Below are positions 9,619-56,181 of a stretch of DNA of 64,000 nt, one piece after another. Every line of letters begins with the position of its first letter. The stretch's first letter is position 1. The stretch lies in NCBI GenBank assembly GCA_934096815.1, contig CAKOMY010000002.1, positions 9,546-73,545 on the forward strand. The letters are read 5' to 3'. The position numbers and the translations under genes are program-made. Below the pieces are notes generated by a model. The model saw only the letters and a program-made list of their open reading frames with translations, made no database searches and was not told the DNA's origin. The DNA comes from an uncultured Bacilli bacterium. GTDB lineage: Bacteria > Bacillota_I > Bacilli_A > RF39 > UBA660.

Positions 9619-9642
9619 TATAAAAGACAAACATATTTTCGC

Positions 9643-9670
9643 TTGACGGGGGGGCTTTTAAAGGTATAAT
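9643..9670 (+). promoter_or_regulatory. Consensus sigma-A-type promoter with G7 tract (paralog family copy 1)
   Basis: TTGACG (9643-9648), 16-nt spacer beginning with the G run, TATAAT (9665-9670), then AAGGTGA RBS and ATG 9695; about 60 bp are near-identical to the segments upstream of 23295, 24898 and 26839. Confidence 0.55.
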
Positions 9671-9694
9671 TTCACTAGGATAAGGTGATTTTAT

Positions 9695-11029
9695 ATGAAT
9701 AATAAAGAAGAACAATTAAAAGTGTATGTAATGATAGGAACAATAATAATGCTCCTAGTGATATTTTCAGGGATAACATATGCTTTTTTTAGTGCGAGCA
9801 ATAATAAAGGAAGTACGTCTTTAATATCAGCAATAAGTGGTAAAATGACAATAAATTATGCCGATGGCAAAAGTGATTTATTAGTATCAAATGATATACA
9901 ACCTAGTGATGCAATATTAGTTAATAAGACATTTACTTTAACAGGTACAAATACAACTAGTGGACTTGCCATGCCATATAAAGTAGGACTAAAATATACA
10001 TCAACATTTAGTGATGGACAAATTCATTATTATATAAAAGAAATGAATAGACCAGATAGTTCTAAAGTAACAGTAGAATATACAGGAACAACTAATCAAA
10101 CAGTACAAGGATATAGTTCGTATATAGGATATTCTCATGGAATTTTAAAAAACGGAAATAATTATACTGAAATGGTAACAGGAGAGTTTCCAGTGAACAC
10201 GTCAAATCAAACAATCACATTTAATTTAATTCTTCAATTTCCTGATACCGGAAAAAATCAAGATAGCGAAAAAGGAAAAGAAATAGGTGGAAGGGTTGTC
10301 GTTAATTATGAACAACCAAAAGCAACCACATTTGCCGAAGATTCATGGAGTACAATAGCAGCCGTGGTTAAAGATGGACAGTTAAATGCTTATTCAGTTG
10401 GAGATGAAAAAGAAGTAGTGCTAAGCGATGGAAAAAGTTATACAGTGCGTGTTGCTAATAATACAACACCTGAAGAGTGTAAAGGACCTGATTTTTCACA
10501 GACAGCCTGTGGATTTGTAGTTGAATTTGTTGATATAGTAGATCAAAGAACAATGAATACTACGGGCACCAATGTAGGCGGTTGGCCAGCAACAGCAATG
10601 AGAATATATACAAAAGGAGAATTCTTAAATAAATTACCAGCAGAATTAAGAAATGTAATAATTGAAACAAAAGTAATATCTGGTCATGGAAGTACATCAG
10701 GAGAAGCTAACTTTATTTCAACAGATAAAATATATTTACTAAGTGCGCATGAAGTATGGGAAGATGGTATAAGTAATCCGGTATCTAGTAGAGATGCTGC
10801 GTATAAAAATACAAGACAATTAGATTATTATGCAAATCTAAAAGTAACCACCAGTAACTATTCAGGTGCTATAAAGAAAAATGTTAATGGTTCGAATTCC
10901 AATTGGTGGCTTCGCTCGGGCAGTTCTGGTAGTAAAAATTATTTTCTAATTGTCAAAAATGATGGAGACTGGACTAATTTTGATGCTAGGTATGCCAGTG
11001 GCTTTGCTCCAGCGTTCCGTATTGGGTAA
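9695..11029 (+). CDS. Secreted protein, paralog family member 1 (TasA/camelysin-like SipW-cognate-type N-terminal signal region, conserved N-domain, distinct C-terminal domain)
   Basis: N-terminus MNNKEEQLKVYVMIGTIIMLLVIFSGITYAFFSASNNKGSTS is near-identical (also at DNA level) to the ORFs at 23295/24898; C-terminal domain ends ...WWLRSGSSGS...GFAPAFRIG. Confidence 0.6.
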   Translation: MNNKEEQLKVYVMIGTIIMLLVIFSGITYAFFSASNNKGSTSLISAISGKMTINYADGKSDLLVSNDIQPSDAILVNKTFTLTGTNTTSGLAMPYKVGLKYTSTFSDGQIHYYIKEMNRPDSSKVTVEYTGTTNQTVQGYSSYIGYSHGILKNGNNYTEMVTGEFPVNTSNQTITFNLILQFPDTGKNQDSEKGKEIGGRVVVNYEQPKATTFAEDSWSTIAAVVKDGQLNAYSVGDEKEVVLSDGKSYTVRVANNTTPEECKGPDFSQTACGFVVEFVDIVDQRTMNTTGTNVGGWPATAMRIYTKGEFLNKLPAELRNVIIETKVISGHGSTSGEANFISTDKIYLLSAHEVWEDGISNPVSSRDAAYKNTRQLDYYANLKVTTSNYSGAIKKNVNGSNSNWWLRSGSSGSKNYFLIVKNDGDWTNFDARYASGFAPAFRIG

Positions 11030-11180
11030 AAATGCAAATCATGGATAGAATAAAATAAAACCTTACGAGGAAACTTATTCAATTAACAGATAAGAATAGG
11101 TTCTTTTTTTTAATTCCATTTACATAATTATAGATAACATTTGTAATTTATTATATAATTATAATGTAAGGAGAATGATT

Positions 11181-12936: not shown

Positions 12937-13535
12937 TGAATATAAATTATAATGAAGAAATGAAAAAAATAATAAGTAATTTAGATAGTAATAATACACT
13001 TTTATTACATTCATGTTGTGGACCTTGTTCAACAGCAGTAATTGAAAGATTAAAAGATTACTTTGATATAACAGTTCTTTATTATAATCCAAATATTGAA
13101 CCGAAAGATGAATACATAAAAAGAAAAGAAGAACAATTAAAAGTATTAAAAGAATATAATATTAAATTTAAAGATATTGATTATTTAAATGAAGAATATC
13201 GTAAGAAAGTAATTGGATATGAAAAAGAACCAGAAAATGGCGCAAGATGTCATATTTGTTATGAACTTAGATTAGAAAAAACAGCTATTCTAGCTAAAGA
13301 AAATAGCTTTGATTATTTTGCAACAACCTTAACTGTTAGTCCATATAAAAATGCTAAAGTGATTAATGAAATAGGACTTAAGTTACAAAACAAATATGAT
13401 GTTAAATATTTACTTTCTGATTTTAAAAAAGAAGATGGTTATAAGAAAAGTATTGAACTATCTAAAAAATATAATTTATATCGTCAAGATTACTGTGGAT
13501 GTTTATTTAGTAAGGAGAGAAAAGTAGATGAATAA
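12933..13535 (+). CDS. queH: Epoxyqueuosine reductase QueH (DUF208)
   Basis: LLLHSCCGPCS...YYNPNIEP...DYCGCLFS cysteine pattern typical of QueH. Confidence 0.7.
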   Translation: MMNINYNEEMKKIISNLDSNNTLLLHSCCGPCSTAVIERLKDYFDITVLYYNPNIEPKDEYIKRKEEQLKVLKEYNIKFKDIDYLNEEYRKKVIGYEKEPENGARCHICYELRLEKTAILAKENSFDYFATTLTVSPYKNAKVINEIGLKLQNKYDVKYLLSDFKKEDGYKKSIELSKKYNLYRQDYCGCLFSKERKVDE

Positions 13536-13923
13536 AAAAGGATTTACATTAGTTGAGATATTAGCAACACTTGTGATACTATCTTTTATATTTATGCTTA
13601 CTTATCCAACGATACAAAAGGCTTTTAACAATGGTAAAACAGCAATTTCTGAATTAAGTAAGAAACAAATTGAAGATGCAGCTAAAATAGTAATAGATGA
13701 AGTTATTTATTGCAATATGTCAGAAGATACTAAATCACTGTTAAATGCTACTAACTGCAAGGATGCACTTGATAAAATTGTTAATGGAATTAATGTTGAT
13801 ATTTCTAAATTGAATTTAGACAATATAAATAATAAACAAAAATGTGAAGGTATAATAAGTATAAAAATAGATAGAGAAACATATAAAGAAACAATAGATA
13901 TGACAAATGTAATATGTAAATAA
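13528..13923 (+). CDS. Prepilin-type N-terminal cleavage/methylation domain protein (type IV pilin-like pseudopilin)
   Basis: MNKKGFTLVEILATLVILSFIF matches the class III signal and N-methylation motif. Confidence 0.6.
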   Translation: MNKKGFTLVEILATLVILSFIFMLTYPTIQKAFNNGKTAISELSKKQIEDAAKIVIDEVIYCNMSEDTKSLLNATNCKDALDKIVNGINVDISKLNLDNINNKQKCEGIISIKIDRETYKETIDMTNVICK

Positions 13924-15290: not shown

Positions 15291-17240
15291 ATGAAATATC
15301 AAAATAAAAATAATCAAATTTTTATTAAATTAAAGTCTAAATTAAGTAGATATTATGATGAAATTCGTTTAATACCAATGAGTAAGGAATATTATTTCGA
15401 TTATGTAACTGAATTGATTAGTAGATGTAGTTGTGAAAATGAAGAAGAAGTATTTAATTTGATAAAAGATCAAACTATAGAGTTAATTTTAAATAGTGAT
15501 AATTGTTTTGAATTTATAAATGGATATATTAATGATAATTTTTCTATAAATAGTGATATTTTAGATTTTTTTAACAAGTTAAATAATTTATTGTTGAAAT
15601 GTAAAAAATTAATAGATTTGGATTTTTATATTGAATTACTAAATAAAAATAAGTTATTGTATTCTATAACTGAATTATATTTTAAGAAGCGTGAGGAACA
15701 AATTATTGGAAGTAATCTTTGGGATTTATTAGATTGTTATGTATTAGTTTATTGTTTACAAGCATATTTAATAATAAATAATATTGAACTTAAGGAAGAA
15801 ATAATTGATTTTGATTACGAATTTGATTATGATTATAAAACTGATTCTTTAACGCAATATTTAAATGAAATAAAACAATATAAAGTTTTAGATGCTCATG
15901 AAGAAAGAAAAATTATTATTGCTACTCAATGTGGTAATATAGAAGCACGTGATTTATTTATAAAATGTAATTTAAGATTAGTAGCAAGTATAGTTCTTAA
16001 AAATTATAATAATAAAGGTATATCAATTTTGGATTTAATTCAAGAAGGAAATATTGGCATGATGCGAGCACTTGATAAATTTAATGTTAATGCTGGATAT
16101 AAATTTTCAACTTATGCTTATCCATGGATTAAACAATATATTGAAAGATATATTGAAAGAAATGGAAGAAATATAAGAATTTCAAGTAATTTTATATTAA
16201 AAATCAATAAATATAAGACTGTATATAGTGAATTAGAAATTAAATTAGGTAGAAAACCTACTAGAAAAGAAATAAGTGTCTTTGCTGGTTTATCAGAAAG
16301 TGATATAGAATTAATTGAAAAAAATTTAAGTGATGTTCTTAGTTTGGATGCGAAATGTGATAATAATGAAGATTTTAAAATATCTGATTCAATAGTAGAT
16401 CCTAGTCCATTATTTGAAGAAGAATATATAGAACAAGAACAAATTAAAATTTTAATGGACAGTTTTTCGAAAGCTAAATTATCTGATAGAGAAGTTGAAA
16501 TATTAAAATGTAGAAATGGCTTTTATGGCAATATTATGTCTTATGAAAAAATTGGAAAAAAATATAATATTAGTAAAGAAAGAGTAAGAAAAATTGAAAT
16601 TGCTACAGTTAAAAAGATAAAAGAATATTTAGAAAAAACTGGAGTTCTTTCAGAAAAAATAAATGTTGATAATATAAATTCAAAACTTATATATGACTAT
16701 TTTAAAGATTATTCTAGGGAACAGATAAATTATGCAATAAAATTTTTGAACGAAGGATATAAAAAGTTAATTTATCTTCATTTAGGAAAAAATTTAAATA
16801 AATTATATGCTTCAAGGTTAAATAGTGAACAAATAAAAATGTTTGATGATTATGTTTTGATAAGAATTTTTAATATTTTATTAATGATATTTGGAGATAG
16901 AAATAGTGATTATAAAAAAGAATTGAATAAAAAAACGTTTGATATAATGCTGTGTTTATTAGAAATGTATCCTTTTACAATAATAAAAGAAAATATATCT
17001 TTAGATGTGTTGATCACGGGGTTATTAAAATTAGGGTATGTTAATGGAGATACTTACAGTGATGAAGTAATTGCTAAATTTTTTAATACATCTGTAGAAA
17101 ATATTACCAAATATTTTAGGGATTTTTTAAGGCTTACTAAAAGTGATCCTTATATTAATAGTATAGTAAAAGAAAAAGAATTTTATTTAAAGTTAGCAAA
17201 CCTAACATATATGGCTAAGATTAATAAAAAGATAAAGTAG
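15291..17240 (+). CDS. Atypical 649-aa sigma-70 family protein (regions 1.2-4 flanked by about 175-aa N-terminal and about 200-aa C-terminal extensions)
   Basis: RpoD-like core: FIKCNLRLVASIV (2.1), DLIQEGNIGMMRALDKF (2.2), YKFSTYAYPWIKQYI (2.3/2.4), region 4 HTH LSDREVEILKCRNGF...ISKERVRKIEIATVKKIKE. Confidence 0.6.
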   Translation: MKYQNKNNQIFIKLKSKLSRYYDEIRLIPMSKEYYFDYVTELISRCSCENEEEVFNLIKDQTIELILNSDNCFEFINGYINDNFSINSDILDFFNKLNNLLLKCKKLIDLDFYIELLNKNKLLYSITELYFKKREEQIIGSNLWDLLDCYVLVYCLQAYLIINNIELKEEIIDFDYEFDYDYKTDSLTQYLNEIKQYKVLDAHEERKIIIATQCGNIEARDLFIKCNLRLVASIVLKNYNNKGISILDLIQEGNIGMMRALDKFNVNAGYKFSTYAYPWIKQYIERYIERNGRNIRISSNFILKINKYKTVYSELEIKLGRKPTRKEISVFAGLSESDIELIEKNLSDVLSLDAKCDNNEDFKISDSIVDPSPLFEEEYIEQEQIKILMDSFSKAKLSDREVEILKCRNGFYGNIMSYEKIGKKYNISKERVRKIEIATVKKIKEYLEKTGVLSEKINVDNINSKLIYDYFKDYSREQINYAIKFLNEGYKKLIYLHLGKNLNKLYASRLNSEQIKMFDDYVLIRIFNILLMIFGDRNSDYKKELNKKTFDIMLCLLEMYPFTIIKENISLDVLITGLLKLGYVNGDTYSDEVIAKFFNTSVENITKYFRDFLRLTKSDPYINSIVKEKEFYLKLANLTYMAKINKKIK

Positions 17241-17248
17241 GTGTTAGT

Positions 17249-19198
17249 ATGAATAATGATAATATATATGAAATTATAATAGAATGGTTAGAATCTTTAT
17301 ATAGTGAGATACCATATATTTCGAAAAATTTATCCGATTATTTGGAATATGTGAAAGAAAAATTAAAAGATGAAAAATTAAATATTGATAGTTTAAAAAT
17401 TGAATTAAAAGATAAGATTATAATAGATATATTAAAAGGATATAACTATTTAGAGTTTTTGAATTTTTATATAAATCATAATTTTAAGGAAACTAATAAA
17501 ATAGAAGAAATAATAGATTATTTTTATGAATTAAACAGGTTAATAGAAGATTCTGGAAGAATAATGTTAATGGATGATTATTTTTATTTATTAAAAAATA
17601 ATAAAATTCTATTAAAATTACTTGAAGTTGTATATAATAGGTACGATAAATTTATAAAAAATAATAGATTTTCGGAGGTTAATAGTAATTCTTTATTAAA
17701 AGCAATTATGCAGGCTTATTGTGATTTAAATAATATTGAAATAGAAGATAGATTTGATAAATTAGAAGATTATTATAGTGATGATAGTTTAGCACAGTAT
17801 ATTTTTGAAATTAGAAGATATCCATTGTTAAATAAAGAAGAAGAAAGAATGTTAATTCTTGAAATAAATAAGGGTAATCAAGATGCTAAAGATTTCTTTA
17901 TAAAATGTAATTTAAGATTAGTTGTATCTGTGGTAATGAGAGAATTTTATAGTTGTTCAATATCTAAATTAGATTTAATTCAAGAAGGAAATTTAGGATT
18001 AATGAGAGCTGTTGAAAAATATAATATTTTAAGTGAGAATAAGTTTTCTAGTTATGCTTACTATTGGATTGAATCCTTTATAACTAGGGCTATAAATAAT
18101 CAATGTCGTACTATTCGCGTTTCTGTTGATTTTCATTATAAAATAAATAAGTATAAAAAGATTTATGAATTATTATTCAACAAATATGGTAGAATTCCAA
18201 CAATGCAAGAAATGATAGAAGCAACAGGAATGAATGAGGAAACTATAAATCTTATTCGAAGTAATCTTATTGGTGTAGTAAGTTATGATTTAGAAGTTAC
18301 CAATGATACTACAGATAAAATATTAGATTTTGTAGAAGATTCAGATGCGAATATTGAAGCAAATTTTCTAATAAAACAGAAGAAAGAAATTTTTAGACAA
18401 TTGTTTAAGAGTAATTATTTAAGCGAAAGAGAAAAGAAAATTTTAATTGATAGGTTTGGTTTTAATGGAGATATTAAATCTCTTGAAGAAATTGGTGCTG
18501 AAATGAAAATAACTAGAGAAAGAGTAAGACAACTTGAGGAAAAAGCAAAAAGAAAAGCATTTAATTTTATCAAAAAACATTATAGAAAAATAATTGAAGT
18601 ACCAAATGAATATCAAAATGGTTTAGATAAAAACTCTGATTTGGTTCAAAAACCATTATATTCTTCATTACCATATCCTTTTGAACAAGTTGATAATGTA
18701 ATATCATTATTGGATAAAAAAGAGCGTGATTATGTAGAATTAAAATATGGAACGGACTTAAGTAAAGCTTATGAATCTAAATTATCAAAATATGAGACTA
18801 AACGTTTTTATAAATTAGTTTTACCAAAAATAAAATTACTTCTAGAACAATTAAATGAAAGTCAACCTGTTTCTGAATTTGATACAATTCAAAGTGATAC
18901 ATGTAATAGACTTTTGAAGTTAATTAGACTGGATTCAATTAATGAATTAATAAATTTATATTCATATAACACTATTGTTATTGGTTTTCTTAAAACTGGT
19001 TATGTTGATTTAATTAAATATAATAATTTAGTAATTGCTAATTTTCTTAATATTAGTGAAGAAAATGTGATAAATGATTTTGAAAAGTTTCAAGGATTAT
19101 CAAATAATGATGAGAAATTAATAGATATTTTATCTAAACGAACTAAATATATTAATTTAATTTCAAAAAAAGAAACTACTGAAAAGTTGTCAAAGTAG
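17249..19198 (+). CDS. Atypical 649-aa sigma-70 family protein, tandem paralog of the preceding gene
   Basis: FIKCNLRLVVSVV, DLIQEGNLGLMRAVEKY, FSSYAYYWIESFI, region 4 LSEREKKILIDRFGF...ITRERVRQLEEKAKRKA; same length and architecture as 15291..17240. Confidence 0.6.
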   Translation: MNNDNIYEIIIEWLESLYSEIPYISKNLSDYLEYVKEKLKDEKLNIDSLKIELKDKIIIDILKGYNYLEFLNFYINHNFKETNKIEEIIDYFYELNRLIEDSGRIMLMDDYFYLLKNNKILLKLLEVVYNRYDKFIKNNRFSEVNSNSLLKAIMQAYCDLNNIEIEDRFDKLEDYYSDDSLAQYIFEIRRYPLLNKEEERMLILEINKGNQDAKDFFIKCNLRLVVSVVMREFYSCSISKLDLIQEGNLGLMRAVEKYNILSENKFSSYAYYWIESFITRAINNQCRTIRVSVDFHYKINKYKKIYELLFNKYGRIPTMQEMIEATGMNEETINLIRSNLIGVVSYDLEVTNDTTDKILDFVEDSDANIEANFLIKQKKEIFRQLFKSNYLSEREKKILIDRFGFNGDIKSLEEIGAEMKITRERVRQLEEKAKRKAFNFIKKHYRKIIEVPNEYQNGLDKNSDLVQKPLYSSLPYPFEQVDNVISLLDKKERDYVELKYGTDLSKAYESKLSKYETKRFYKLVLPKIKLLLEQLNESQPVSEFDTIQSDTCNRLLKLIRLDSINELINLYSYNTIVIGFLKTGYVDLIKYNNLVIANFLNISEENVINDFEKFQGLSNNDEKLIDILSKRTKYINLISKKETTEKLSK

Positions 19199-22657: not shown

Positions 22658-23149
22658 ATGGAAAATATGATTATAGCATTTGATTATGTTGGAACGGATA
22701 ACAATATACATACTGAGGTATATAGACATTATAAAGAAGAACCATTTATAGTTAGTCCAAGTGTAGAGTTTGCATATATTCCAGCAAAAAGAATATTACA
22801 AAGAAATTTAGCATCAATTGTATCATTTAATGTTTATTATTTTGATAATGAAGGGAAATATATTAAAGAATCTTATTATATTTGTAGTAAAAAAAATAAA
22901 TATAAAAAATTTTTAAATAAAAATTATGAAAATGAAAAAGAAAAATTAGAACAATTGAAATTGAAAATATCTTTATTAAATATTCTTAGTAGAATTAATA
23001 AACATGCAAATGATATTAATGTTTCGTTAAATGAGACAGTCGGAGAATTTATGAACCATTCTCATCTTTGCAAATCAAGAAGTGAATTACTTACTAAATT
23101 GGATGAGTGGATATCACTACAAGAAGAAAGTAAAATTAAAAGAAAATAA
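22658..23149 (+). CDS. Hypothetical protein
   Basis: 163-aa ORF with RBS GGGGAAAAA; no recognised motif. Confidence 0.3.
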   Translation: MENMIIAFDYVGTDNNIHTEVYRHYKEEPFIVSPSVEFAYIPAKRILQRNLASIVSFNVYYFDNEGKYIKESYYICSKKNKYKKFLNKNYENEKEKLEQLKLKISLLNILSRINKHANDINVSLNETVGEFMNHSHLCKSRSELLTKLDEWISLQEESKIKRK

Positions 23150-23241
23150 TTTAATTACCGGCAGGGAAATCAAAACCCACCGGAATTTTTTAATATAAAT
23201 TATCATATATATTATAAATTACAAATAGAACAAAAATTCGC

Positions 23242-23269
23242 TTGACGGGGGGGCTTTTAAAGGTATAAT
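23242..23269 (+). promoter_or_regulatory. Consensus promoter with G7 tract (paralog copy 2)
   Basis: TTGACGGGGGGGCTTTTAAAGGTATAAT, identical to the 9643 and 24846 copies. Confidence 0.55.
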
Positions 23270-23294
23270 TTCACTATGGAATATGGTGATTTAT

Positions 23295-24788
23295 ATGAAT
23301 AAAGAAGAACAAATAAAAGTATATGTAATGATAGGAACAGTAGTGATGCTCTTAGTGATCTTTTCGGGAATAACATATGCTTTTTTTAGTGCCAGTAATA
23401 ATAAAGGAAGTACATCGATAGTAGAGGTAAAAAGTGGTAAAATGACAATAAGTTATGCAAATGGTAAAAGTAGATTGTTAGTATCAAAAGATATTCAACC
23501 AAGTGATAAGATAATAATAGATAAAACTTTTACATTAACAGGAACAAATACAACAAGTGGCTTAGCTATGCCATATAAGATAGGACTAAATTATGTATCT
23601 GAGTTTAGTGATGGACAAATACATTATTATATTAAAAGAACAAACGCCAATAGTAATATAACAAGTAATTTAGTAGGAACAGCAAATCAAACAATACCAG
23701 GAAATACCACTGAAACAGGATATACTACTGGGACACTTAAAAAAGGTAATAGATACTTAGAACTAGCAACAGGAGAATTTAAAGCAAACACAAGTAATCA
23801 AACAATAACATTTAATTTAAAAATCCAATTTCCTGTTACCGGAGTAAGTCAAGATAGTGAAAAAGGAAAAACACTAACTGGTGAAATAGTTGTAAATTAC
23901 GAAGAAACAGCAACTGATACCTTAATGGCTCTTTATGATAAAGAAACAAAGACAAATGAAGTATCAACAAGTGGATTATTTATTGATGATACTAAAGATG
24001 TAAATTTAAGATATACCGGAGCAACACCAAATAACTATGTCGAGTTTAATAATGAGACATGGAGAATAATTGGAATATTTAATGTATTTAATAATGAAAC
24101 TAAAAAAGTTGAAAAAATGATTAAAATAATAAGAAATGAATCTCTTGGATTATATTCTTGGGATACGTCTAATTCTAAAGTGAACGATGGAAAAGGAATT
24201 AATGAATGGAGTCAAGCAAAATTAATGTATGAATTAAATACGGATTATATAGACATTAGTAAAAGTGGAACAACTAAATGGTATAATGGTCCGGAAAATG
24301 CACAAAATGAAATTTATGAATATAGTAAAAACATAAATAGTGATTCGATGGATAAAATAGCAAATGTTAAATGGAATACTGGTGGAACAATATACGGAGT
24401 AAACGTAATTACTTCTTACAATCAAGAACGAGGAACAATTAATGTTGATAATCCGACAGATGGAATTGTTAGAAATAGTTATTGGAATGGTAAAATTGGA
24501 TTATTATATCCAAGTGATTATGGTTATGCATCCTCAAATGATATATGTAGAAGTCAGTTGAGTTCACCTGACTGTAAAAATAATAATTGGATTTTTATAG
24601 GTATGAGTCAATGGACAATAACTCCTTATAAAAATAGTAGTATGAGATCATTTAGTTCATTAGAACATGGTATTATAAATGATACCAATGTAAGCAATCC
24701 AAGTAATGTTCGTCCAACAATTTTTTTAAAAAATCATGTAAAAATAATAAGAGGAGAAGGAACAAATTCTAATCCATATCAAATATAG
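23295..24788 (+). CDS. Secreted protein, paralog family member 2
   Basis: Start moved to the ATG aligned with the other paralogs (MNKEEQIKVYVMIGT...); shares the conserved N-domain; mosaic C-region (middle like copy 4, end like copy 3) ending ...VRPTIFLKNHVKIIRGEGTNSNPYQI. Confidence 0.6.
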   Translation: MNKEEQIKVYVMIGTVVMLLVIFSGITYAFFSASNNKGSTSIVEVKSGKMTISYANGKSRLLVSKDIQPSDKIIIDKTFTLTGTNTTSGLAMPYKIGLNYVSEFSDGQIHYYIKRTNANSNITSNLVGTANQTIPGNTTETGYTTGTLKKGNRYLELATGEFKANTSNQTITFNLKIQFPVTGVSQDSEKGKTLTGEIVVNYEETATDTLMALYDKETKTNEVSTSGLFIDDTKDVNLRYTGATPNNYVEFNNETWRIIGIFNVFNNETKKVEKMIKIIRNESLGLYSWDTSNSKVNDGKGINEWSQAKLMYELNTDYIDISKSGTTKWYNGPENAQNEIYEYSKNINSDSMDKIANVKWNTGGTIYGVNVITSYNQERGTINVDNPTDGIVRNSYWNGKIGLLYPSDYGYASSNDICRSQLSSPDCKNNNWIFIGMSQWTITPYKNSSMRSFSSLEHGIINDTNVSNPSNVRPTIFLKNHVKIIRGEGTNSNPYQI

Positions 24789-24845
24789 TATATATAATAT
24801 AAATTACCATACATATTATAAATTACAAATAGAACAAAAATTCGC

Positions 24846-24873
24846 TTGACGGGGGGGCTTTTAAAGGTATAAT
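24846..24873 (+). promoter_or_regulatory. Consensus promoter with G7 tract (paralog copy 3)
   Basis: TTGACG plus G run, 16 nt, TATAAT; the whole 24786-24897 intergenic region is near-identical to 23180-23294. Confidence 0.55.
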
Positions 24874-24897
24874 TTCACTAGGATAAGGTGATTTTAT

Positions 24898-26457
24898 ATG
24901 AATAATAAAGAAGAACAAATAAAAGTGTATGTAATGATAGGAACAATAATAATGCTCCTAGTGATATTTTCAGGAGTAACATATGCTTTTTTTAGTGCCA
25001 GTAATAATAAAGGAAGTACATCAATAGTAGAAGTAAAAAGTGGAAAAATGACAATAAGTTATGCAGATGGTAAAAGTAGTTTATTAGTATCAAAAGATAT
25101 TCAGCCAAGTAATAAGATAATAATAGATAAAACTTTCACGTTAACAGGAACAAATACAACTAGTGGACTTGCCATGCCATATAAAGTAGGACTAAATTAT
25201 GTATCTGAGTTTAGTGATGGACAAATACATTATTATATTAAAAGAACGAATGCAAATGCAAATATCACAAGCAATTTAATTGGAACTGCAAATCAAACTA
25301 TACCAGGAAATATTTCTGAAACTGGTTATACTTTTGGAACACTTAAAAAAGGTAATAGATACTTAGAACTAGCAACAGGAGAGTTTAAAGCAAGCACAAG
25401 TAATCAAACAATTACATTTAACCTAAAACTACAATTTCCTGATACAGGTATCAATCAAGATAGTGAAAAAGGAAAAACACTAACTGGTGAAATCGTTGTA
25501 AATTATGAATCTGAAACTATTGCTAAAACAATTTCTAAATTAGATAAAGAAAGTAATGGACTTGAAATAGATGATACTGTAGATAAAAATTTAAGATATG
25601 TAGGAGTAAATCCTAGAAACTATATAACATTTAACAACGAAACGTGGAGAATTGTTGGCGTATTTAATAACATTACAACTATAGATGATAATGGAAATGA
25701 AAAACAAGAATCATTAGTAAAAATAATACGAGATGAACGTATAGGAAGCTATTCATGGGATAGTTCATCATCAGATATAAATGATGGTAGTGGAATCAAT
25801 GAATGGAGTCAAGCAGACTTAATGTATGAACTTAACTGTGATGGAACGTCTTCATCAAAATATTGTCGCGAAGATATAGCCGGTGGCTATTTATCAAACA
25901 TTACAAATGGAACAACTAAATGGTATAATACTCAGAATAATATTCAAGGTGCAACTTATTATTATAGTAAAAATGTCAAAAAGGAATATATAAATTATAT
26001 TGCAACTGCTAGATGGAATTTAGGTGGGGCAACATACGGCTCGAGTTCATTAAAATCATATAATGAGGAACGAGGAACTAACCATATAAGTAACCCATCA
26101 GATGGAATCTCAAGAACTAACTTTTGGAAAGGAAAAATTGCTTTATTGTATCCAAGTGATTATGGGTATGCTTCAACAGATTCATTATGTAGAAGTGATA
26201 TGCGTTCACAAACTAGTAATATTTATAATTGTCAAAATAATAATTGGTTATTCAATGGTACATATCAATGGACATTGTCTTCATTTTCTGATAGGGATAA
26301 AGCTATATTTAATTTCACTAATAAAGGGTGGGTAACTAATGTCGATGCATGTGCTAGTAGTAGCGTACGTCCAACTCTATACTTAAAATCTGATATTGTA
26401 ATAGTTGGAGGAACTGGAGAAAAAGGAGATACATATATAATAGATGAAATTAAATAA
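24898..26457 (+). CDS. Secreted protein, paralog family member 3
   Basis: N-terminal 60 codons nearly identical in DNA to the gene at 9695; C-terminal module ends VRPTLYLKSDIVIVGGTGEKGDTYII. Confidence 0.6.
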   Translation: MNNKEEQIKVYVMIGTIIMLLVIFSGVTYAFFSASNNKGSTSIVEVKSGKMTISYADGKSSLLVSKDIQPSNKIIIDKTFTLTGTNTTSGLAMPYKVGLNYVSEFSDGQIHYYIKRTNANANITSNLIGTANQTIPGNISETGYTFGTLKKGNRYLELATGEFKASTSNQTITFNLKLQFPDTGINQDSEKGKTLTGEIVVNYESETIAKTISKLDKESNGLEIDDTVDKNLRYVGVNPRNYITFNNETWRIVGVFNNITTIDDNGNEKQESLVKIIRDERIGSYSWDSSSSDINDGSGINEWSQADLMYELNCDGTSSSKYCREDIAGGYLSNITNGTTKWYNTQNNIQGATYYYSKNVKKEYINYIATARWNLGGATYGSSSLKSYNEERGTNHISNPSDGISRTNFWKGKIALLYPSDYGYASTDSLCRSDMRSQTSNIYNCQNNNWLFNGTYQWTLSSFSDRDKAIFNFTNKGWVTNVDACASSSVRPTLYLKSDIVIVGGTGEKGDTYIIDEIK

Positions 26458-26780
26458 TTTTATCAAAACAAAAAAAGATGATAAATATAGAAAACTTCAA
26501 TAATATATTTGATAAATTCCAAAAATATATTATAAATCATGGTTGGTGACATAAAAAAGGATTAAAATTCATAAAATTTTGTGCTGATTATTCTTGAATT
26601 TAATCGTATCATAAATATGTCGAAAGATAGTAATTTTGAAGGAAGAGAAACAGTTTAGCGACTAAGGAATCTCTTCTTTTATTTTATCTTAATATTCTTT
26701 AAATAATGTGCAATTCATTTTACACTATCTATGGCCCGTCAAGTGTAGTTAAAAAATTTTTAAAGTGAACCTACGTTTGC

Positions 26781-26808
26781 TTGACGGGGGGGTAAATGGC
26801 GATATAAT
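26781..26808 (+). promoter_or_regulatory. Consensus promoter with G7 tract (paralog copy 4, divergent spacer)
   Basis: TTGACGGGGGGGTAAATGGCGATATAAT; -35, G7 and -10 are conserved although the spacer sequence differs. Confidence 0.5.
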
Positions 26809-26838
26809 TTGACTATGATATAGGAAGGATAAAGAAGA

Positions 26839-28398
26839 ATGAATGAACAAAAAGTAAGAACAATTGTGGTTTTATCAATAATAATAATGATGATAGTGTT
26901 ATTTATTGGAATAACTTATTCTTATTTTACTGCTTTAAATAATAAAGGAAGTACATCATTAATATCAGCAACAAGTGGTAAAATGGTAATAAGTTATGCC
27001 GATGGATCTAGTAAATTATTATCAAGTGAAAATATACAGCCAAGTAATAAGATTTTAATAGATAAAACATTCACATTAACTGGAACAAATACAACTAGTG
27101 GCTTAGCCATGCCATATAAAGTAGGCCTAAATTATGTATCTGAGTTTAGTGATGGACAAATACATTATTATATTAAAAGAATGAGTACAAATAGTAATAT
27201 AACAAGCAAATTAGTAGGAACAGCAAATCAAACAATACCAGGAAATACAACTGAAACAGGATATACTACAGGAACACTTAAAAAAGGTAATAGATACTTA
27301 GAACTAGCAACAGGAGAGTTTAAAGCAAATACATCAAATCAAACAATAACATTTAATTTAAAAATCCAATTTCCGGATACCGGAGTAAGTCAAGATAGTG
27401 AAAAAGGAAAAACACTAACTGGTGAAATAGTTGTCAATTACGAAGAATCAGCAACTGATACCTTAATGGCTCTTTATGATAAAGAAACAAAGACAAATGG
27501 AGTATCAACAAGTGGATTATTTATAGATGATACTAAAGATGTAAATTTAAGATATGCAGGAGCAACACCAAATAACTATGTTTATTTTGGAAATGATAAT
27601 GAATTATGGAGAATAGTTGGAATATTTAATGTAACAGATTCAGAAGGTAATACAACAAGAAAACTAAAATTAGTAAGAGATTCAGCATTAGGTGGATACT
27701 CATGGGATGCAACTGGAAATAATAATCATGGATTTAATGATTGGACAGATGCAGATTTAATGAAAGAATTAAATGGAGATTATTTAAATACAACCTTAAC
27801 AGCCAATAAAACAAATTGGTACAATTCATATTGGGATTCTAGCACACAAAAACCAGTATTAAGACAAACAGGAACATTTAACTATACAACTGTCATAAAA
27901 GATAAATATCAAAACATGATAAGCAATAGTGTATGGAACATCGGTGGAAATAGTTATACCGATTCTACACCATATTCTATAAACTTATTAACTCAGTATA
28001 ATCGTGAGAGAGATAAAATAACCTATCAAAATAGTCGTCCTACCACTTGGATAGGTAAGGTTGGACTTATTTATGCAAGTGATTATGGTTATGCATCAAC
28101 TTATGCAGAATGTCATAAAAACTTAAGAGTAGGAGTAACTTATGATAAATCTACTAATAAGTGGGATTATTCTGGACTATGTAAAATAGATAACTGGCTT
28201 GCCAAGAACTCATGGTACTGGACATTGTCGCCTTACTCTGGTGACTCGTATCACGTGTTCTATGTGCATGGGGACGGTGCTGTCAACATCCTCGACGCGT
28301 GTCTTTCCAACAACGTTTTTCCGACAGTTTTCTTGAAATCTGATGTCAAAATAACAAGTGGAACAGGTGAAAAAGGAAGCCCATATATTTTAATTTAA
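26839..28398 (+). CDS. Secreted protein, paralog family member 4
   Basis: Divergent signal region (MNEQKVRTIVVLSIIIMMIVLFIGITYSYFTALNNKGSTS), same conserved N-domain, distinct C-region ending VFPTVFLKSDVKITSGTGEKGSPYILI. Confidence 0.6.
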   Translation: MNEQKVRTIVVLSIIIMMIVLFIGITYSYFTALNNKGSTSLISATSGKMVISYADGSSKLLSSENIQPSNKILIDKTFTLTGTNTTSGLAMPYKVGLNYVSEFSDGQIHYYIKRMSTNSNITSKLVGTANQTIPGNTTETGYTTGTLKKGNRYLELATGEFKANTSNQTITFNLKIQFPDTGVSQDSEKGKTLTGEIVVNYEESATDTLMALYDKETKTNGVSTSGLFIDDTKDVNLRYAGATPNNYVYFGNDNELWRIVGIFNVTDSEGNTTRKLKLVRDSALGGYSWDATGNNNHGFNDWTDADLMKELNGDYLNTTLTANKTNWYNSYWDSSTQKPVLRQTGTFNYTTVIKDKYQNMISNSVWNIGGNSYTDSTPYSINLLTQYNRERDKITYQNSRPTTWIGKVGLIYASDYGYASTYAECHKNLRVGVTYDKSTNKWDYSGLCKIDNWLAKNSWYWTLSPYSGDSYHVFYVHGDGAVNILDACLSNNVFPTVFLKSDVKITSGTGEKGSPYILI

Positions 28399-28401
28399 TA
28401 A

Positions 28402-28440
28402 AAAGGATATTGGAAAATAATAACAATATCCTTTATTTCT
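28402..28440. terminator. Bidirectional rho-independent terminator between convergent genes
   Basis: 10-bp stem aaggatattg/caatatcctt with 11-nt loop, flanked by A and T runs. Confidence 0.55.
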
Positions 28441-28996
28441 TTTTTAGTTTAAACCTATCTAATAATGTTTTTTTCTTTGTGATAATTTCATTTATTCTTA
28501 AGTTTATTAAATCTTCATCAGTTCCAAATACTTTAGCACAAAATTCTGGATTATGAAAATGATTTTCTAATTTAAGTAATTCATCTTTTGGAACTAATAA
28601 ATTTCTTGCCATATATTCCGCAAGTTCATTTCTTTGCATTTTTTCTATTGAACCATAACCTGTATGATAATTTATATTTTTAGAATTTAAATGAAACATA
28701 TAATAAGAAAGTAAATATAAAATTAGATATCTTTTATCTTTTGGTTTAAGATTTGATCTAATAACTATACTTTTATCTTTATTATTAACTCTTATGATTC
28801 CATCAATAAATGTTGGTAAGTTTTCATTTTCATAAACATTAAAATTAAATAGATCAGCAAGTTTTAATACTACAATTCTTTGAATATTAATATCATAATA
28901 TCTGTTTTTATATTCATAATTTTTATATACCTTAAATTCTTTTTTTATTTTATTAATTGTTTCATCTAATTCTTGTTTTGTTAATTCATCAATCAT
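28433..28996 (-). CDS. Degenerate ImmA/IrrE-like (DUF955) protein lacking the HEXXH zinc motif, paralog A
   Basis: Architecture I-x-V-N...R-x-R-[YF] then LLSYYMFH where HEXXH is expected, followed by the ELAEYMARNLLVP motif typical of the family C-terminus. Confidence 0.4.
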   Translation of the reverse strand: MIDELTKQELDETINKIKKEFKVYKNYEYKNRYYDINIQRIVVLKLADLFNFNVYENENLPTFIDGIIRVNNKDKSIVIRSNLKPKDKRYLILYLLSYYMFHLNSKNINYHTGYGSIEKMQRNELAEYMARNLLVPKDELLKLENHFHNPEFCAKVFGTDEDLINLRINEIITKKKTLLDRFKLKKK

Positions 28997-29397: not shown

Positions 29398-29961
29398 TTA
29401 GTTCTTTATTTTATTTATTAAATTTTTAACAGTATTGTCATTTTTAAGATAATATAACTGTTCACACATAATTTTTAAATTTACACTAAATATTTTAGTA
29501 CATAAAGTTGGATACAAGTAATAATTTTTAATTTTATTTAATTCTTCTTTTGGAACTAAAATATTTCTAGCTATATATTCAGCATTCTTATCTCTGTATT
29601 TAAAATCTTCTTCAGTATCAAATGATTGCAAAAAAATATAATCTTCATTTGCATGTAATAAATAATACGATAATAAATACATAATAATATATCTTTTATT
29701 ACTTAGACTTCTGTGTTTATTAACAATTATTTTTTTATATTCATTATTAGTATATAAAATACCATCATTTAAATCAGGAAGAATATCACTTTCTTCAATT
29801 TCTACATCAAATAAATTTGCAAGTTTAACTGTGTTTACTTTTTTTATTTCAATCTTATTGTGATTAATGTAATATTGATTTGTATCAAATGCAATATCAA
29901 GATTTGTTTTAATTTCATTAATTTTATAATCTAAAATATCTTTATTCACATTTTCATTCAT
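29398..29961 (-). CDS. Degenerate ImmA/IrrE-like (DUF955) protein lacking HEXXH, paralog B
   Basis: 187 aa, same length as 28433..28996; YLLSYYLLHANE in place of HEXXH, then AEYIARNILVP. Confidence 0.4.
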   Translation of the reverse strand: MNENVNKDILDYKINEIKTNLDIAFDTNQYYINHNKIEIKKVNTVKLANLFDVEIEESDILPDLNDGILYTNNEYKKIIVNKHRSLSNKRYIIMYLLSYYLLHANEDYIFLQSFDTEEDFKYRDKNAEYIARNILVPKEELNKIKNYYLYPTLCTKIFSVNLKIMCEQLYYLKNDNTVKNLINKIKN

Positions 29962-31566: not shown

Positions 31567-31843
31567 AATAGGAATTTAAGTAGTCAAAAAATGCAGAACA
31601 AATTACTCTAAATTTGCACAATATATGTTGATAAAATCATATGTTATTCCTATAGACAGGTGAATTTGATGAGCTTAACAAAAAAGTTTATAAATAGATA
31701 AAGCGACAAAAGAAAATATATAGTTATAACAATGGAATATATTCAATTTATGAAAAATATCAACAAAAGAAATTTAAATCATACTTTTTTATTGTTTTAT
31801 CGTTAATTTTATTATATACTTTAAGCGTAAGGATGTGATAGTT

Positions 31844-33250
31844 GTGGGAAAAGTAAAATTATTAATATTTAGCATCATAGCATGTTTATTTATTAATGTA
31901 AGTGCTCTTACATATACTGAAGAAGAAGTAGTAGATAGAATTAATTCATCTAAAGTAAGTGTAAATGAGTTATTAGGGGATTTAATAAATTGGTCTGATA
32001 CAAATAAAAATGCGACTAAAAAATTAGTTAACAAAGATTTTGTTAAAAGCATTAATTCTTTAGACTTTGAAACTAACTTAAATAAGACAATAAGTAAATT
32101 AAGAAATAGTGGAGAGATTAAGGCTGCTAATGACTTAGAAGCATTAAAATCAAAACTTTTAAATAATTATAATAGTTATAAAGAAACACTTAAAATAACT
32201 AAAACTTATTTAGAAGAAAGAAAAGATTATGGAGTTAATGGTAATTTAGATGTATTTATAGCAATTAGAGAACTTGCTAAATATAATAAGTCTAGTATAT
32301 CTTCTTTAGGAAAAATATATTATAGTGATGCATTTGATTATATATATGATAATATTGATAAATATACTATTGATGAGGTAATTAGTGAATTTGATTATAT
32401 TTATGAATTAGATATTGTTAATAAACTATTTAATAAGTCTGATGAGTTTATGGCAATTTATAATGATTATCATTTAGAAGACTATGATGATTTATTTAAG
32501 GATTACTTTGGAAGTTATTATAGTACTTTAAAGAAAGATTATTATAAATTATATGATAAATTAGAAAGTAAATATCAGGCTATTTTAGAAAAGAAAGTTA
32601 AAGAAATAGTTGATAATACTGATTTGAGTAGTGATGCAAGTATTACAAATAGAAATAACAAATTATATGAATTAATAGATGAAATAGATTTAACAAGTAA
32701 TAAGTTAAATACTAGATTTAATAATATTGATTCTAAAATTAAAATAGCAAGTATTAAAAAATATACTAAAGAATATCAAACTGAAGCATTAAATAGATTT
32801 GAAGAAGCAAGTAATTATGTAAGAAAATATATTATTGATAATCTTAAATTAGATGTTAAAAATGATTCTGATAGAAAAGATTTTCAAATAAATATGGCAA
32901 AAGAAATGATTATTTATAGTGGTACAAATTTAGACATTTCAGTTATTGATAAACTTGTAAGTAATTATGGATTTTTAAGAACTGTAAACTTATTTGGAAA
33001 TAATGTTGGTACAGGAAGTAGAATTCAAATTATTAATAATGAATTAATTGTAAAAGATTTCTTATTCATAGTTAAAGGTGATGTTAGTGCATCAGGAAGA
33101 ATAGATATTTCTGATGTAGTTAAAATGGCTAATAAGATGTTTGATAAAGTTAATTTAAGTGAATTTGAAATGATGGCTGCTGATATGAATGATGATAATA
33201 AAATTGATATTACTGACATAGTATTACTTTGTAACAAGATATTTAATTAG
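31844..33250 (+). CDS. Secreted protein with C-terminal type I dockerin-like domain
   Basis: Signal peptide (cleavage near VSA-LT); two 12-residue Ca-loop repeats at the C-terminus, DVSASGRIDISD and DMNDDNKIDITD, each followed by a hydrophobic helix; GTG 31844 preferred on RBS spacing (track start 31835). Confidence 0.5.
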   Translation: MGKVKLLIFSIIACLFINVSALTYTEEEVVDRINSSKVSVNELLGDLINWSDTNKNATKKLVNKDFVKSINSLDFETNLNKTISKLRNSGEIKAANDLEALKSKLLNNYNSYKETLKITKTYLEERKDYGVNGNLDVFIAIRELAKYNKSSISSLGKIYYSDAFDYIYDNIDKYTIDEVISEFDYIYELDIVNKLFNKSDEFMAIYNDYHLEDYDDLFKDYFGSYYSTLKKDYYKLYDKLESKYQAILEKKVKEIVDNTDLSSDASITNRNNKLYELIDEIDLTSNKLNTRFNNIDSKIKIASIKKYTKEYQTEALNRFEEASNYVRKYIIDNLKLDVKNDSDRKDFQINMAKEMIIYSGTNLDISVIDKLVSNYGFLRTVNLFGNNVGTGSRIQIINNELIVKDFLFIVKGDVSASGRIDISDVVKMANKMFDKVNLSEFEMMAADMNDDNKIDITDIVLLCNKIFN

Positions 33251-34616: not shown

Positions 34617-34952
34617 ATGGAAAAACAAGATTTGAAAAAAATAAAAAGAAAAGATCTTTTAGAATTATTACTGGCACAGACTAATAGAATTAGAGAATTA
34701 GAAGAAGAAAATATAAAACTTCAAAATGAATTAAATAATCGAAAAATTAAGATTGATGAATCAGGAACACTTGCAGAAGCAGCTCTTAAGCTTAATAATC
34801 TTTTTGAAGATGCTGAGAAAGCTATCGATGATTATTTTTACAATCTTGAAGCTAGGCAGGGTAATAGTATATCCAAAAAAGATACTATAGTTACAATAAA
34901 TAATATTAGAAAGCCACTTAATAATAAGAAAAGTAATTATGAAAAAAACTAA
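34617..34952 (+). CDS. Coiled-coil protein, hypothetical
   Basis: 111 aa with heptad-like charged pattern; overlaps the start of the signal peptidase gene. Confidence 0.3.
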   Translation: MEKQDLKKIKRKDLLELLLAQTNRIRELEEENIKLQNELNNRKIKIDESGTLAEAALKLNNLFEDAEKAIDDYFYNLEARQGNSISKKDTIVTINNIRKPLNNKKSNYEKN

Positions 34953-35529
34953 AGAAAAACTAAATTATAAAGATTTAATTGTTTCAGATATTGAAGATGA
35001 AATTGCTAGAGAAAAATATAAAAAAAGTTTTACTAAAATACTTACAAATACCTTATTTATATTATTAATTATTTTAGCAGTTGGTTCAATTATAACAACT
35101 ATCTTTATGCCAGTTATAGAAGTTACATCATCTAGTATGAAACCAATAATTAATGATGGTAATTTAATTTTAAATTTTAAAACTAATAATTATAGAACTG
35201 GAGATATAGTTTCATTTTATCATGGTAATAAGATACTTATTAAAAGAGTTATTGGAACTAGTGGAGATTTTATAAATATAGATATAGATGGGAATGTGTA
35301 TGTAAATGGAAATAAAATAAATATTCCTAATGTTACAAACTTAAAAAAGGGGAATGGAGATGTAACTTTTCCTTTACAAGTACCAGAAAATTCTTTATTC
35401 GTATTAAGTGATGAAAGAGATAATATGTTTGATTCAAGGACTAGTGAAATAGGTTTTGTAAGTAAAAATGACACAATAGGTAAGGTTATTTTAAAAATTT
35501 ATCCATTAAATGAGATAAGAATCATATAA
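34939..35529 (+). CDS. Signal peptidase I (S26 family, P-type), pilus-locus associated
   Basis: N-terminal TM; SSSMKP (Ser box), IKRVIGTSGD (Lys box), LSDERDNMFDSR (GDNRxxSxDSR-like box). Confidence 0.7.
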   Translation: MKKTKEKLNYKDLIVSDIEDEIAREKYKKSFTKILTNTLFILLIILAVGSIITTIFMPVIEVTSSSMKPIINDGNLILNFKTNNYRTGDIVSFYHGNKILIKRVIGTSGDFINIDIDGNVYVNGNKINIPNVTNLKKGNGDVTFPLQVPENSLFVLSDERDNMFDSRTSEIGFVSKNDTIGKVILKIYPLNEIRII

Positions 35530-35548
35530 TAACTTAGCGGGAGGTTTT

Positions 35549-37816: not shown

Positions 37817-37831
37817 GAAAGGAAAAAGAGA

Positions 37832-39220: not shown

Positions 39221-39258
39221 TAATTATTATAGTAAAGATTGAAGGAGGTTAAAGTAAT

Positions 39259-40107
39259 ATGAATAAAAGAAATACTATAATTATGATAATATTATTTTTC
39301 ATAGGACTTTTAACCCTCTTTTATCCTACTTTAAGTAATTATTATAATGAAAAAATAGGATCTAAAACTATTTATAATTATGAAAATATAATTGATAGTT
39401 ATGATTTTAATAAATTTAAAGAAATAAAAGATAACGCTATTAAGTATAATAAATATTTATCTAAATTAAGTGATCCTTTAATAGATTATAAGGAAATAAA
39501 GAATTATGAAAATATTCTTAATGTAAATGATGAAGGAATGATGGGGTATTTATCTATCGATAAAATTAGAGTTGAAATACCTATTTATCATGGAACTAGT
39601 AATGATACATTAAACAGTTTTGTAGGACATGTTGAAGGAACTAGTCTTCCAATAGGTGGAAATAGTACTCATAGTGTTTTATCAGCTCATAGAGGACTTC
39701 CATCAGCTAAATTATTTTCTGATTTAGATAAGTTAGAGGTAGGAGATACATTTAAAATTATTGTACTTGATGAGGCTTTAACTTACAAAGTAGATAAAAT
39801 ATCAATAGTTAAACCTAATAATAGTAAAGAATTAATGAATGTTAAAGATAAAGATTATGTAACTTTAATTACTTGTACTCCTTATGGAATTAATACGCAT
39901 AGATTATTAGTAAGAGGAGTAAGAGTAGATAATAATATTAATAAAGTTTATATAAGTACAGAAGGATTTAAAATAAATAAGCTAATAGTAATACCTATTT
40001 TAACATTACCTATAATAATACTATTAATATTAATTATAGTAATTAAACCAGTTAAGAAACCTAATAATATGATATTTAAAAAGTATCTATATCCTAATGG
40101 AAAATAG
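39259..40107 (+). CDS. Class C (pilus-assembly) sortase
   Basis: N-terminal TM, HRGLPSAKLF (catalytic His region), TLITCTPYGINTHRLLVRG (TLxTC Cys, Arg), C-terminal hydrophobic lid/anchor. Confidence 0.8.
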   Translation: MNKRNTIIMIILFFIGLLTLFYPTLSNYYNEKIGSKTIYNYENIIDSYDFNKFKEIKDNAIKYNKYLSKLSDPLIDYKEIKNYENILNVNDEGMMGYLSIDKIRVEIPIYHGTSNDTLNSFVGHVEGTSLPIGGNSTHSVLSAHRGLPSAKLFSDLDKLEVGDTFKIIVLDEALTYKVDKISIVKPNNSKELMNVKDKDYVTLITCTPYGINTHRLLVRGVRVDNNINKVYISTEGFKINKLIVIPILTLPIIILLILIIVIKPVKKPNNMIFKKYLYPNGK

Positions 40108-40115
40108 GAGGTAAT

Positions 40116-44706: not shown

Positions 44707-44714
44707 GGAGAATT

Positions 44715-45425: not shown

Positions 45426-45436
45426 ATGTAAAGGTT

Positions 45437-47602: not shown

Positions 47603-47603
47603 G

Positions 47604-50426: not shown

Positions 50427-50432
50427 TTAATT

Positions 50433-54167: not shown

Positions 54168-54333
54168 ATGATTCCTTACTTAATTCCAAGAAATCATTAT
54201 TAATATCTTGTCATACCAGTTATTTAAGATATCATCAAAAGCTAGTAAAAAAATTGAATGGATTTTATATCATAATACAAAAAATATATAATTATAATAG
54301 AATATCTTATTTCTTAGTTCGAATAAGAATAGA

Positions 54334-55817: not shown

Positions 55818-55920
55818 TTATAACGTATATATGGGTGTAAGTTTTAATGAATTCATTGATGGATATTATGTTTAATTAATAAAATGTTATCATCTAAAGA
55901 CAGAAAATTTATTCTATCTT

Positions 55921-56180: not shown

Positions 56181-56181
56181 G

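Follow-up and report, generated by a model that had tools for sequence, protein, structure and literature searches.

Why should a gene beside murG begin almost base for base like a second gene on the same contig but end in a different domain? The question is posed by g9695, which lies on a 64,000-nt stretch of DNA (referred to as the window; G+C content 23.6%) that is part of the 204-kb ENA metagenome contig ERZ27286929 k141_322801 and comes from an uncultured gut bacterium of low G+C content, which records of metagenome-assembled genomes (MAGs) list under Bacilli or 'Tenericutes'. The gene is flanked by an S1-domain gene on one side and by murG/ftsQ on the other, and it is a monocistronic member, with its own promoter, of a lineage-specific multigene family. 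Three further members, g23283, g24898 and g26839, which bear a different C-terminal module (class B), are present in the window, and tblastn finds no others there. Our analysis indicates that this is probably a recombining family, whose members combine a promoter containing a run of G residues, a SipW/TasA-type signal and a TasA-like β-sandwich with interchangeable C-terminal heads, and between whose paralogs segmental gene conversion takes place.

The sequence-only reading of the window held that g9695 and the copy at 24840-25000 are nearly identical in promoter and 5' coding end, and this is borne out. In an ungapped comparison numbered from the ATG, a run of 78 bp (-57 to +20) is exactly the same in g9695 and g24898; the two genes agree at all 55 positions of the promoter and 5' untranslated region (UTR) from -55 to -1, and differ at only 3 of the first 100 coding bases (97/100 identical). 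Identity is 83% from +100 to +200 and about 40% beyond approximately +630, which is background at the G+C content of the window, so that the 5' end is far more alike than the rest of the gene. Upstream of -57 only 52% of the bases agree; the non-coding likeness claimed earlier is thus real, but extends over some 57 bp rather than the 75 bp or so originally given. The promoter as such is common to the family, that of g23283 being 89% identical from -55 to -1, and that of g26839, at 65%, having only the -35 hexamer, the G7 run, the -10 hexamer and its flank in common. The C-terminal half of g9695 is indeed unique, as had been stated: tblastn detects no second copy of it in the window, and it corresponds to PF19789 (DUF6273).

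But does the common 5' end reflect recombination or constraint? A close relative, the MAG CAKOQK (98% amino acid identity in murG, approximately 90% identity in the flanking DNA), offers the comparison, its gene L022, which adjoins murG, being the positional ortholog of g9695. From -55 to -1, g9695 is 74% identical to this ortholog as compared to 100% to its in-genome paralog g24898, and within CAKOQK the same segment is 100% identical between L022 and L020 and again between L021 and L023. Where g9695 and g24898 encode the same amino acid, silent differences are found at 1 of 28 codons in codons 1-33, at 7 of 24 in codons 34-66 and at 11 of 40 in codons 67-116 (18 of 64, or about 28%, over codons 34-116). 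Further downstream the partners change. From +131 to +330, g9695 groups with the DUF6273-type genes of CAKOQK (92-95% identity), with g24898 only 82% identical, and from +331 to +620, L022 resembles the N-domains of the class B type (83-87%), with g9695 at only 71%; these switches along both g9695 and L022 mark the genes as mosaics. Among 54 genes from nine genomes, the nearest neighbour resides in the same genome for 34 of the promoters, 37 of the leaders, 37 of the N-domains and 19 of the terminal 600-nt segments, about 7 being expected by chance. In addition, leader peptides are genome-specific, murG-adjacent orthologs included (MNNKEEQ... in the window and CAKOQK, MN(K/N)(V/A)KNER... in CAKOIE and MERKQKEQ... 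in CAKOKM).

Taken together, these comparisons support a 5' end that was homogenised by recombination, beyond plain old paralogy, and they agree with the concerted evolution proposed by the sequence-only reading. Ancient duplication, followed by purifying selection on promoter and signal peptide, would account for the 85-98% identity of codons 1-43 among all copies of the NNKEEQ type in both genomes and for promoter elements that are kept across species. We nevertheless consider it very unlikely, as it would not readily explain the concentration of identity at the 5' end, the fact that at unconstrained positions the paralog lies nearer to g9695 than the positional ortholog does, the homogenised silent sites and the mosaic blocks that switch partners. 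As the spacer of g9695 (CTTTTAAAGG) is of the type found in the class B cluster and unlike that of its orthologs (TAAACCG...), g9695 was presumably the recipient of the tract: a copy of the g24898 type would have overwritten some 160-190 bp of it (-57 to about +100/+130). Other breakpoints, some within the N-domain and some where it meets the head, would have kept the front halves alike within a genome and reassorted the heads. The idea that g9695 itself is a recently dispersed copy does not hold, for a DUF6273-class gene adjoins murG in three genomes.

Non-coding identity had also been taken as a sign of recombination in its own right, and here homogenisation is only part of the answer. The promoter of g9695 (TTGACG-16 nt-TATAAT, 9643-9670) is of the σ70 type with 11 of 12 consensus matches, and its G7 homopolymer sits between the -35 and -10 hexamers. 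GGGGGGG occurs four times in the window, each time in one of the family promoters (0.31 occurrences expected; none of 100 shuffles reaches four), and the extended -10 motif TATAATTTNACTA, too, is found nowhere in the window outside these four promoters. In a protein-guided scan that located 59 loci of the family in nine MAG species (5-15 copies per genome where sampling was better), 26 of 57 loci had exactly TTGAC-G7-10 nt-TA(T/A)AAT; the others show G4, G5, G6, G8, an interrupted run or additional bases that separate TTGAC from the run, and some family members are driven by an unrelated promoter. The P0305 and P0245 loci, the latter with a different N-terminus, are devoid of the G-run promoter, and hence the motif is not universal. 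A search with a 22-base promoter pattern recovered 16 metagenome stretches, with members of this family and of a second one. The promoter GTTCGCTTGAC-G7-N10-TATAATTTCACTA heads this second family in L004, L007, L009, L016 and L017; its proteins look unrelated to the g9695 family, start with MIKNDKRFKYTLIV...GYSLSFFN (also given as MIKNDKRFKYTL...) and end either in a Gly-rich sequence (GGSGIVVIRAH) or in a DUF6273-like one (GFSPAFRIG). Because no fewer than eight MAG species have retained the -35/G-run/-10 motif and because it heads another family, part of the non-coding conservation must be functional. The promoter would thus appear to mark a regulon wider than the g9695 family, and it provides a handle for a regulon search in metagenomes.

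Could the GTTCGCTTGAC-G7 block then be the site of a dedicated regulator or σ factor that governs a co-regulated regulon, with the non-coding identity due mainly to purifying selection? We take this for a serious possibility, if not quite an evenly balanced one. The motif is preserved in at least eight MAG species although the remaining 10 bases of the spacer differ, the G run survives even where bases have been inserted in front of it, after TTGAC, the second family has this promoter too, a two-component system lies 5' of a core operon for TasA-like proteins and SipW in relatives (see below), and two unusual σ70-like genes lie between the family members in the window. However, such a site would leave unexplained the 100% identity to the paralog at variable spacer and UTR positions against 74% to the ortholog, as well as the near-absence of silent differences from codons 1-33; moreover, no regulator is tied to the block, and the core operon does not carry the motif. 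As to the two σ70-like genes themselves, they encode tandem paralogous proteins of 649 aa (15291-17240 and 17249-19198, between g9695 and the class B cluster) with σ70 regions 1.2, 2, 3 and 4 at about aa 180-445 and long N- and C-terminal extensions, a size and a duplication that are unusual for a primary-type σ factor. A conserved block just 5' of the -35 hexamer in g9695 (9630-9642) and in the homologous promoters, (T)GTTCGCT, looks by eye like GTTCTYT, the half-site of the SinR operator, through which tapA-sipW-tasA is controlled in B. subtilis.

The G run may also be viewed as a contingency switch, in which slipped-strand gain or loss of a G alters the -35/-10 spacing (15 nt with G6, 16 nt with G7, 17 nt with G8) and turns expression up or down, and this could hold alongside gene conversion. 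All four promoters carry G7 in their spacer in DNA of such low G+C content. At the P0197 locus an identical protein with an identical 130-bp upstream flank is preceded by G8 in one sample (L078) and by G7 in two others (L079 and L080), otherwise identical promoters differ in having G6 or G7 (L005 versus L004, L011 and L017; L012 versus L007), and the paralogs range from G4 to G8. Spacer indels are known to switch the Mycoplasma surface-protein genes vlp, maa2 and vmm (PMC2268961). Yet these cases of length polymorphism are few, and one-base homopolymer differences in contigs some of which have a coverage as low as 3-5x may be sequencing errors. Furthermore, G7 with its 16-nt spacer is by far the commonest form (26/57), whereas classical contingency loci differ greatly from one copy or strain to the next, a run of seven is short for high-frequency slippage, and G7 and G8 promoters would both be expected to be active. 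We therefore regard the switch as doubtful, although the tract does permit a read-level test of phase variation. A search of the literature on RF39 and phase variation gave nothing about the g9695 family.

What kind of protein stands behind this promoter? The constant part was originally seen as a cassette of promoter and signal peptide. A shared front does exist, but it is larger than that, since it takes in a whole domain of about 170 aa that resembles TasA and CalY, and breakpoints lie inside it. The profile of the g9695 N-domain aligns with the N-domains of PF12389-positive 'CalY family' proteins with 97% probability (hhalign, E 9e-11, 155 columns), in an alignment that takes in the signal motif as well as the C-terminal NQD..KGK block, and 3 of 13 family members match PF12389 directly (best E 2.6e-6). 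The family has the signal motif G-x-T-Y-A-F-F in common with TasA of B. subtilis, CalY of B. cereus and BsaA of C. perfringens, and the strand S-G-x-M-x-I-x-Y-x-D-G, P-S/G-D and the C-terminal N-Q-D-x-x-K-G-K align with CalY-like N-domains. Confident AlphaFold2 (AF2) models of g9695 and g24898 (pLDDT 86.9 and 85.3, respectively) each consist of an N-terminal helix, a β-sandwich and a mixed α/β head. On these grounds the g9695 N-domain is probably homologous to the TasA/CalY/BsaA subunits of SipW-dependent biofilm fibres, of which TasA and BsaA assemble by donor-strand exchange (PMC9674648, PMC11580942).

Relatives of the window organism carry, as TasA systems do, an operon of two tasA-like genes and sipW. 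In CAKOJQ and CAKOQK (L076, 2390-4762; L077, 2380-4721) a two-component system, composed of an OmpR/PhoB-type response regulator and a histidine kinase, is followed by two TasA-like genes and then by an archaeal-type SipW peptidase. The first TasA-like protein (196 aa) matches the family profile with 96% probability, the second (about 240 aa) is a standalone family member, and the peptidase, which has a long Asn/Lys-rich C-terminal tail, scores 105 bits with TIGR02228 (cutoff 51.85) and matches SipW too. This is the core operon referred to above, and it lacks the G-run promoter. The g9695-type proteins may be processed by such a SipW-type peptidase, join or cap TasA-like fibres or else remain surface-bound, and offer alternative lectin-like heads through which the cell could adhere. 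From TasA, CalY and BsaA they differ in that all window proteins score below the curated cutoffs (PF12389; TIGR04088, TIGR04090), in the large C-terminal head, which the known fibre subunits do not have, and in that they are encoded by many dispersed monocistronic copies with promoters of their own instead of by one sipW operon.

Several observations weigh against the picture of a recombining, TasA-like family. None of the four window proteins matches PF12389 at E<=0.1, and among them only g24898 hits TIGR04088, with 15.6 bits under a cutoff of 19. TasA is not among the top PDB matches returned by Foldseek for the N-domain, and searching PDB sequences by profile yields no match. The 64-kb window contains no SipW; its sole S26 peptidase (34939-35529) is of the bacterial type (TIGR02227, 110 bits; TIGR02228, 38.6 bits and thus under the cutoff of 51.85). 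Similarity within genomes could in part stem from lineage-specific duplication instead of conversion. Finally, all data are metagenome assemblies, and with the source being a MEGAHIT-style contig, one might suspect that the identical 5' ends arose from mis-joined repeats. This seems hardly credible to us. Repeat collapse during assembly is unlikely because the exact shared runs, at most 78 nt long, are shorter than the k=141 implied by the contig name; an assembly chimera was rejected on the length of these runs as well. In addition, the exact g9695 protein is found on at least four contigs, and the architecture and promoters recur in independent MAGs and samples.

The head of g9695 matches PF19789 with 61.4 bits (cutoff 23.5; aa 279-443). 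Its DUF6273 module has 3278 homologs, nearly all of them PF19789-positive, and recurs at 55-66% identity behind CalY-like (PF12389), prepilin (N_methyl) and DUF285 N-termini. The head is thus portable, with at least three different export scaffolds (TasA-like, prepilin and DUF285) carrying it. A lone prepilin-type gene, encoding 131 aa (GFxxxE, ComGC-like), is present in the window between queH and ftsY (13528-13923), and elsewhere such prepilin N-termini are fused to DUF6273 heads. The best PDB match of the g9695 AF2 model in Foldseek is 9qa6 (E 5e-5, 286 columns), and the class B protein g24898 finds the same entry (E 8e-7). 9qa6 is the IgA protease of Thomasclavelia ramosa, the N-terminal DUF6273 domain of which is C-type-lectin-like (PMC12237041, PMC12402451). 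The match presumably falls on this domain, and the g9695 head is accordingly predicted, from DUF6273 and the 9qa6 match, to adopt a C-type-lectin-like fold. In the protease the DUF6273 domain stands N-terminal to the metalloprotease and is dispensable for catalysis (PMC12237041), whereas in g9695 it forms a C-terminal head.

The class B head is a module of about 300 aa found in g23283, g24898 and g26839. It had been thought to have the same motif skeleton as the g9695 head; in favour of this, models of both types match 9qa6 best, but the profiles of DUF6273 (class A) and class B heads match only weakly, over the last 45 columns (hhalign, probability 15%, E 0.0018). g26839 scores 15.2 bits with PF19789, under the cutoff of 23.5, and a few class B homologs carry PF19789. 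A relationship between the two classes is thus plausible by structure and weak by sequence.

Among viral models (BFVD), the best matches of g9695 are DUF6273 tail-fibre or receptor-binding proteins (E ~1e-12). Known DUF6273 domains include phage tentaclins, targets of diversity-generating retroelements (DGRs) and phage modules of tail fibres or receptor binding (PMC10743442). One might thus think of the g9695 head as a DGR target, or of g9695 as a phage receptor-binding protein captured in a prophage. We hold both to be highly improbable: the 3' end of g9695 (10800-11029) has no template repeat in the window, the window open reading frames (ORFs) that were scanned include neither a reverse transcriptase nor a recombinase or phage gene, and the gene sits among housekeeping neighbours (S1, murG, ftsQ) at a position that is kept in three genomes. 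A DGR target was rejected for want of a template repeat and a reverse transcriptase, and a prophage or other mobile element on account of the neighbours and the conserved position.

Are the heads in fact exchanged? Downstream of the M16 peptidase genes, orf163 and the three class B genes occupy the site in the window, and a single DUF6273-type gene, which has the same MVIYM... leader as g23283, occupies it in CAKOQK; within one genome the same leader types are found on both head classes. These findings support the exchange of C-terminal modules between family members. Of the exchangeable 'effector' domains suggested by the sequence-only reading, the exchange therefore stands; the heads, however, are better described as predicted lectin-like binding modules than as effectors. 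With its profile, the N-domain retrieves 1166 cluster representatives, of 190 to 789 aa, from 1.84 billion proteins. One family member of 732 aa (L027, MAG CANNTX) is double-headed, having a class B module and then a DUF6273 module in tandem. The product of orf163 (163 aa, 22658-23149), which precedes the class B cluster, matches no family, and the gene is absent at the counterpart site in CAKOQK.

How does the family compare with known systems? Its two-part architecture is that of the PF12389+PF19789 fusions of about 411 aa that carry the automatic annotation 'CalY family protein' in MAGs of Clostridium (P0151, for example); their DUF6273 module is 55-58% identical to that of g9695, the N-domain only about 22%. 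The DUF6273 proteins of phage resemble the g9695 head, as described, but no DGR was found in the window. Closer in genetic layout are the surface antigens of mycoplasmas: Vlp of M. hyorhinis likewise has a homopolymer between -35 and -10 (PMC2268961), and the Vsp and Vpma systems of M. bovis and M. agalactiae couple a conserved 5' UTR and signal-peptide cassette to divergent exposed bodies. The g9695 family differs from them in having no lipobox Cys or lipoprotein signal and no tandem-repeat C-termini, and its homopolymer is poly-G of mostly uniform length, not the poly-A of Vlp. Moreover, the window organism is walled and has sortase pili, and no invertase or site-specific recombinase is present among the window ORFs scanned, a finding on which an invertible or recombinase-driven switch was rejected. 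Neither the PF12389+PF19789 architecture nor the head domain is new, and conserved 5' cassettes are known as a principle; what is new is how they are combined, how large the family is, that its G-run promoter is conserved and that there is direct evidence of conversion in a gut lineage not yet in culture.

Fibres of the TasA type have been regarded as plain scaffolds of the matrix, and to our knowledge no surface biology has been described for the lineage of the window organism. A TasA-like scaffold with interchangeable lectin-like heads in a recombining family suggests that a prevalent gut lineage, as yet uncultured, possesses adhesins of modular build. A bolder proposal would be that this widespread lineage of human-gut Bacilli builds TasA-like fibres from the SipW core operon and decorates them with any of 5-15 alternative head subunits, whose genes are switched or tuned one by one through poly-G slippage in their common promoter and are constantly reshuffled by conversion. 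We think it unlikely that all of this is correct; if it were, the system would be a Gram-positive, fibre-based counterpart of antigenic or adhesive variation of the mycoplasma Vlp or neisserial Opa type.

Features of the g9695 locus and of its paralogs in the window (positions are those of the window)
Feature	Coordinates	Strand	Basis or remark
g9695 coding sequence, 444 aa	9695..11029	+	exact protein also recorded in ENA assemblies
78-bp stretch identical to 24841-24918; putative core of gene-conversion tract	9638..9715	+	ortholog contrast, drop in silent-site differences
-35 hexamer TTGACG	9643..9648	+	in all four copies and in relatives
G7 homopolymer, 5' end of promoter spacer	9648..9654	+	four in window, G4-G8 variants in relatives
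-10 hexamer TATAAT with conserved downstream TTCACTA	9665..9677	+	TATAATTTNACTA confined to the four family promoters
Ribosome-binding site AAGGTGA, 6 nt 5' of ATG	9682..9688	+	read off the sequence
Predicted signal/anchor region, aa 1-35, SipW-type motif G-I-T-Y-A-F-F-S-A	9695..9799	+	AF2 helix 4-35; TIGR04088 sub-threshold on g24898 and relatives
Predicted TasA/CalY-like all-β N-domain, aa 36-207	9800..10315	+	hhalign 97%; 3/13 family members match PF12389; AF2 β-sandwich, pLDDT ~90
C-terminal DUF6273 module, aa 208-444 (Pfam aa 279-443)	10316..11026	+	C-type-lectin-like; PMC10743442, PMC12237041
Weak terminator-like hairpin followed by U8, 3' of g9695 stop	11067..11112	+	-8.9 kcal/mol, z -1.8
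Paralog g23283, same promoter, class B C-module	23240..24788	+	
Paralog g24898 with class B C-module; 5' tract of g9695 probably from a copy of this type	24844..26457	+	
Paralog g26839, second promoter/leader subtype (MNEQKV...), class B C-module	26779..28398	+	orthologous to L054/L058/L049

The remainder of the window holds several further elements. Two paralogous ImmA/IrrE-like (Peptidase_M78) genes of 187 aa each lie on the minus strand directly 3' of the three-gene cluster (28433-28996 and 29398-29961), and no partner helix-turn-helix gene was seen for this pair. A 471-aa protein that ends in a type I dockerin domain is encoded at 31835-33250. The whole window is without an Rfam family match or tRNA, so that no RNA element was detected in the g9695 leader either, and a gap of about 2 kb (54168-56181) upstream of a PD-(D/E)XK transposase-like gene contains no ORF of at least 90 aa in addition to having no Rfam or tRNA match. 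A sortase-dependent pilus locus (34617-41547) comprises the bacterial-type S26 signal peptidase, a VWA/GBS104-like tip pilin (755 aa), an SpaH/EbpB-like LPXTG major pilin, a class C sortase, a Cna-B minor pilin and a second sortase; from this locus it follows that the organism, its 'Tenericutes' label notwithstanding, is walled. There is also a defence-type module, a pair of AAA_21 (AbiEii-like ATPase) and RloB genes (41718-43579), and beside this pair lies a 10-kb polysaccharide locus (44020-54167) that encodes a UDP-galactopyranose mutase, a Wzy-like polymerase and a pyruvyl transferase.

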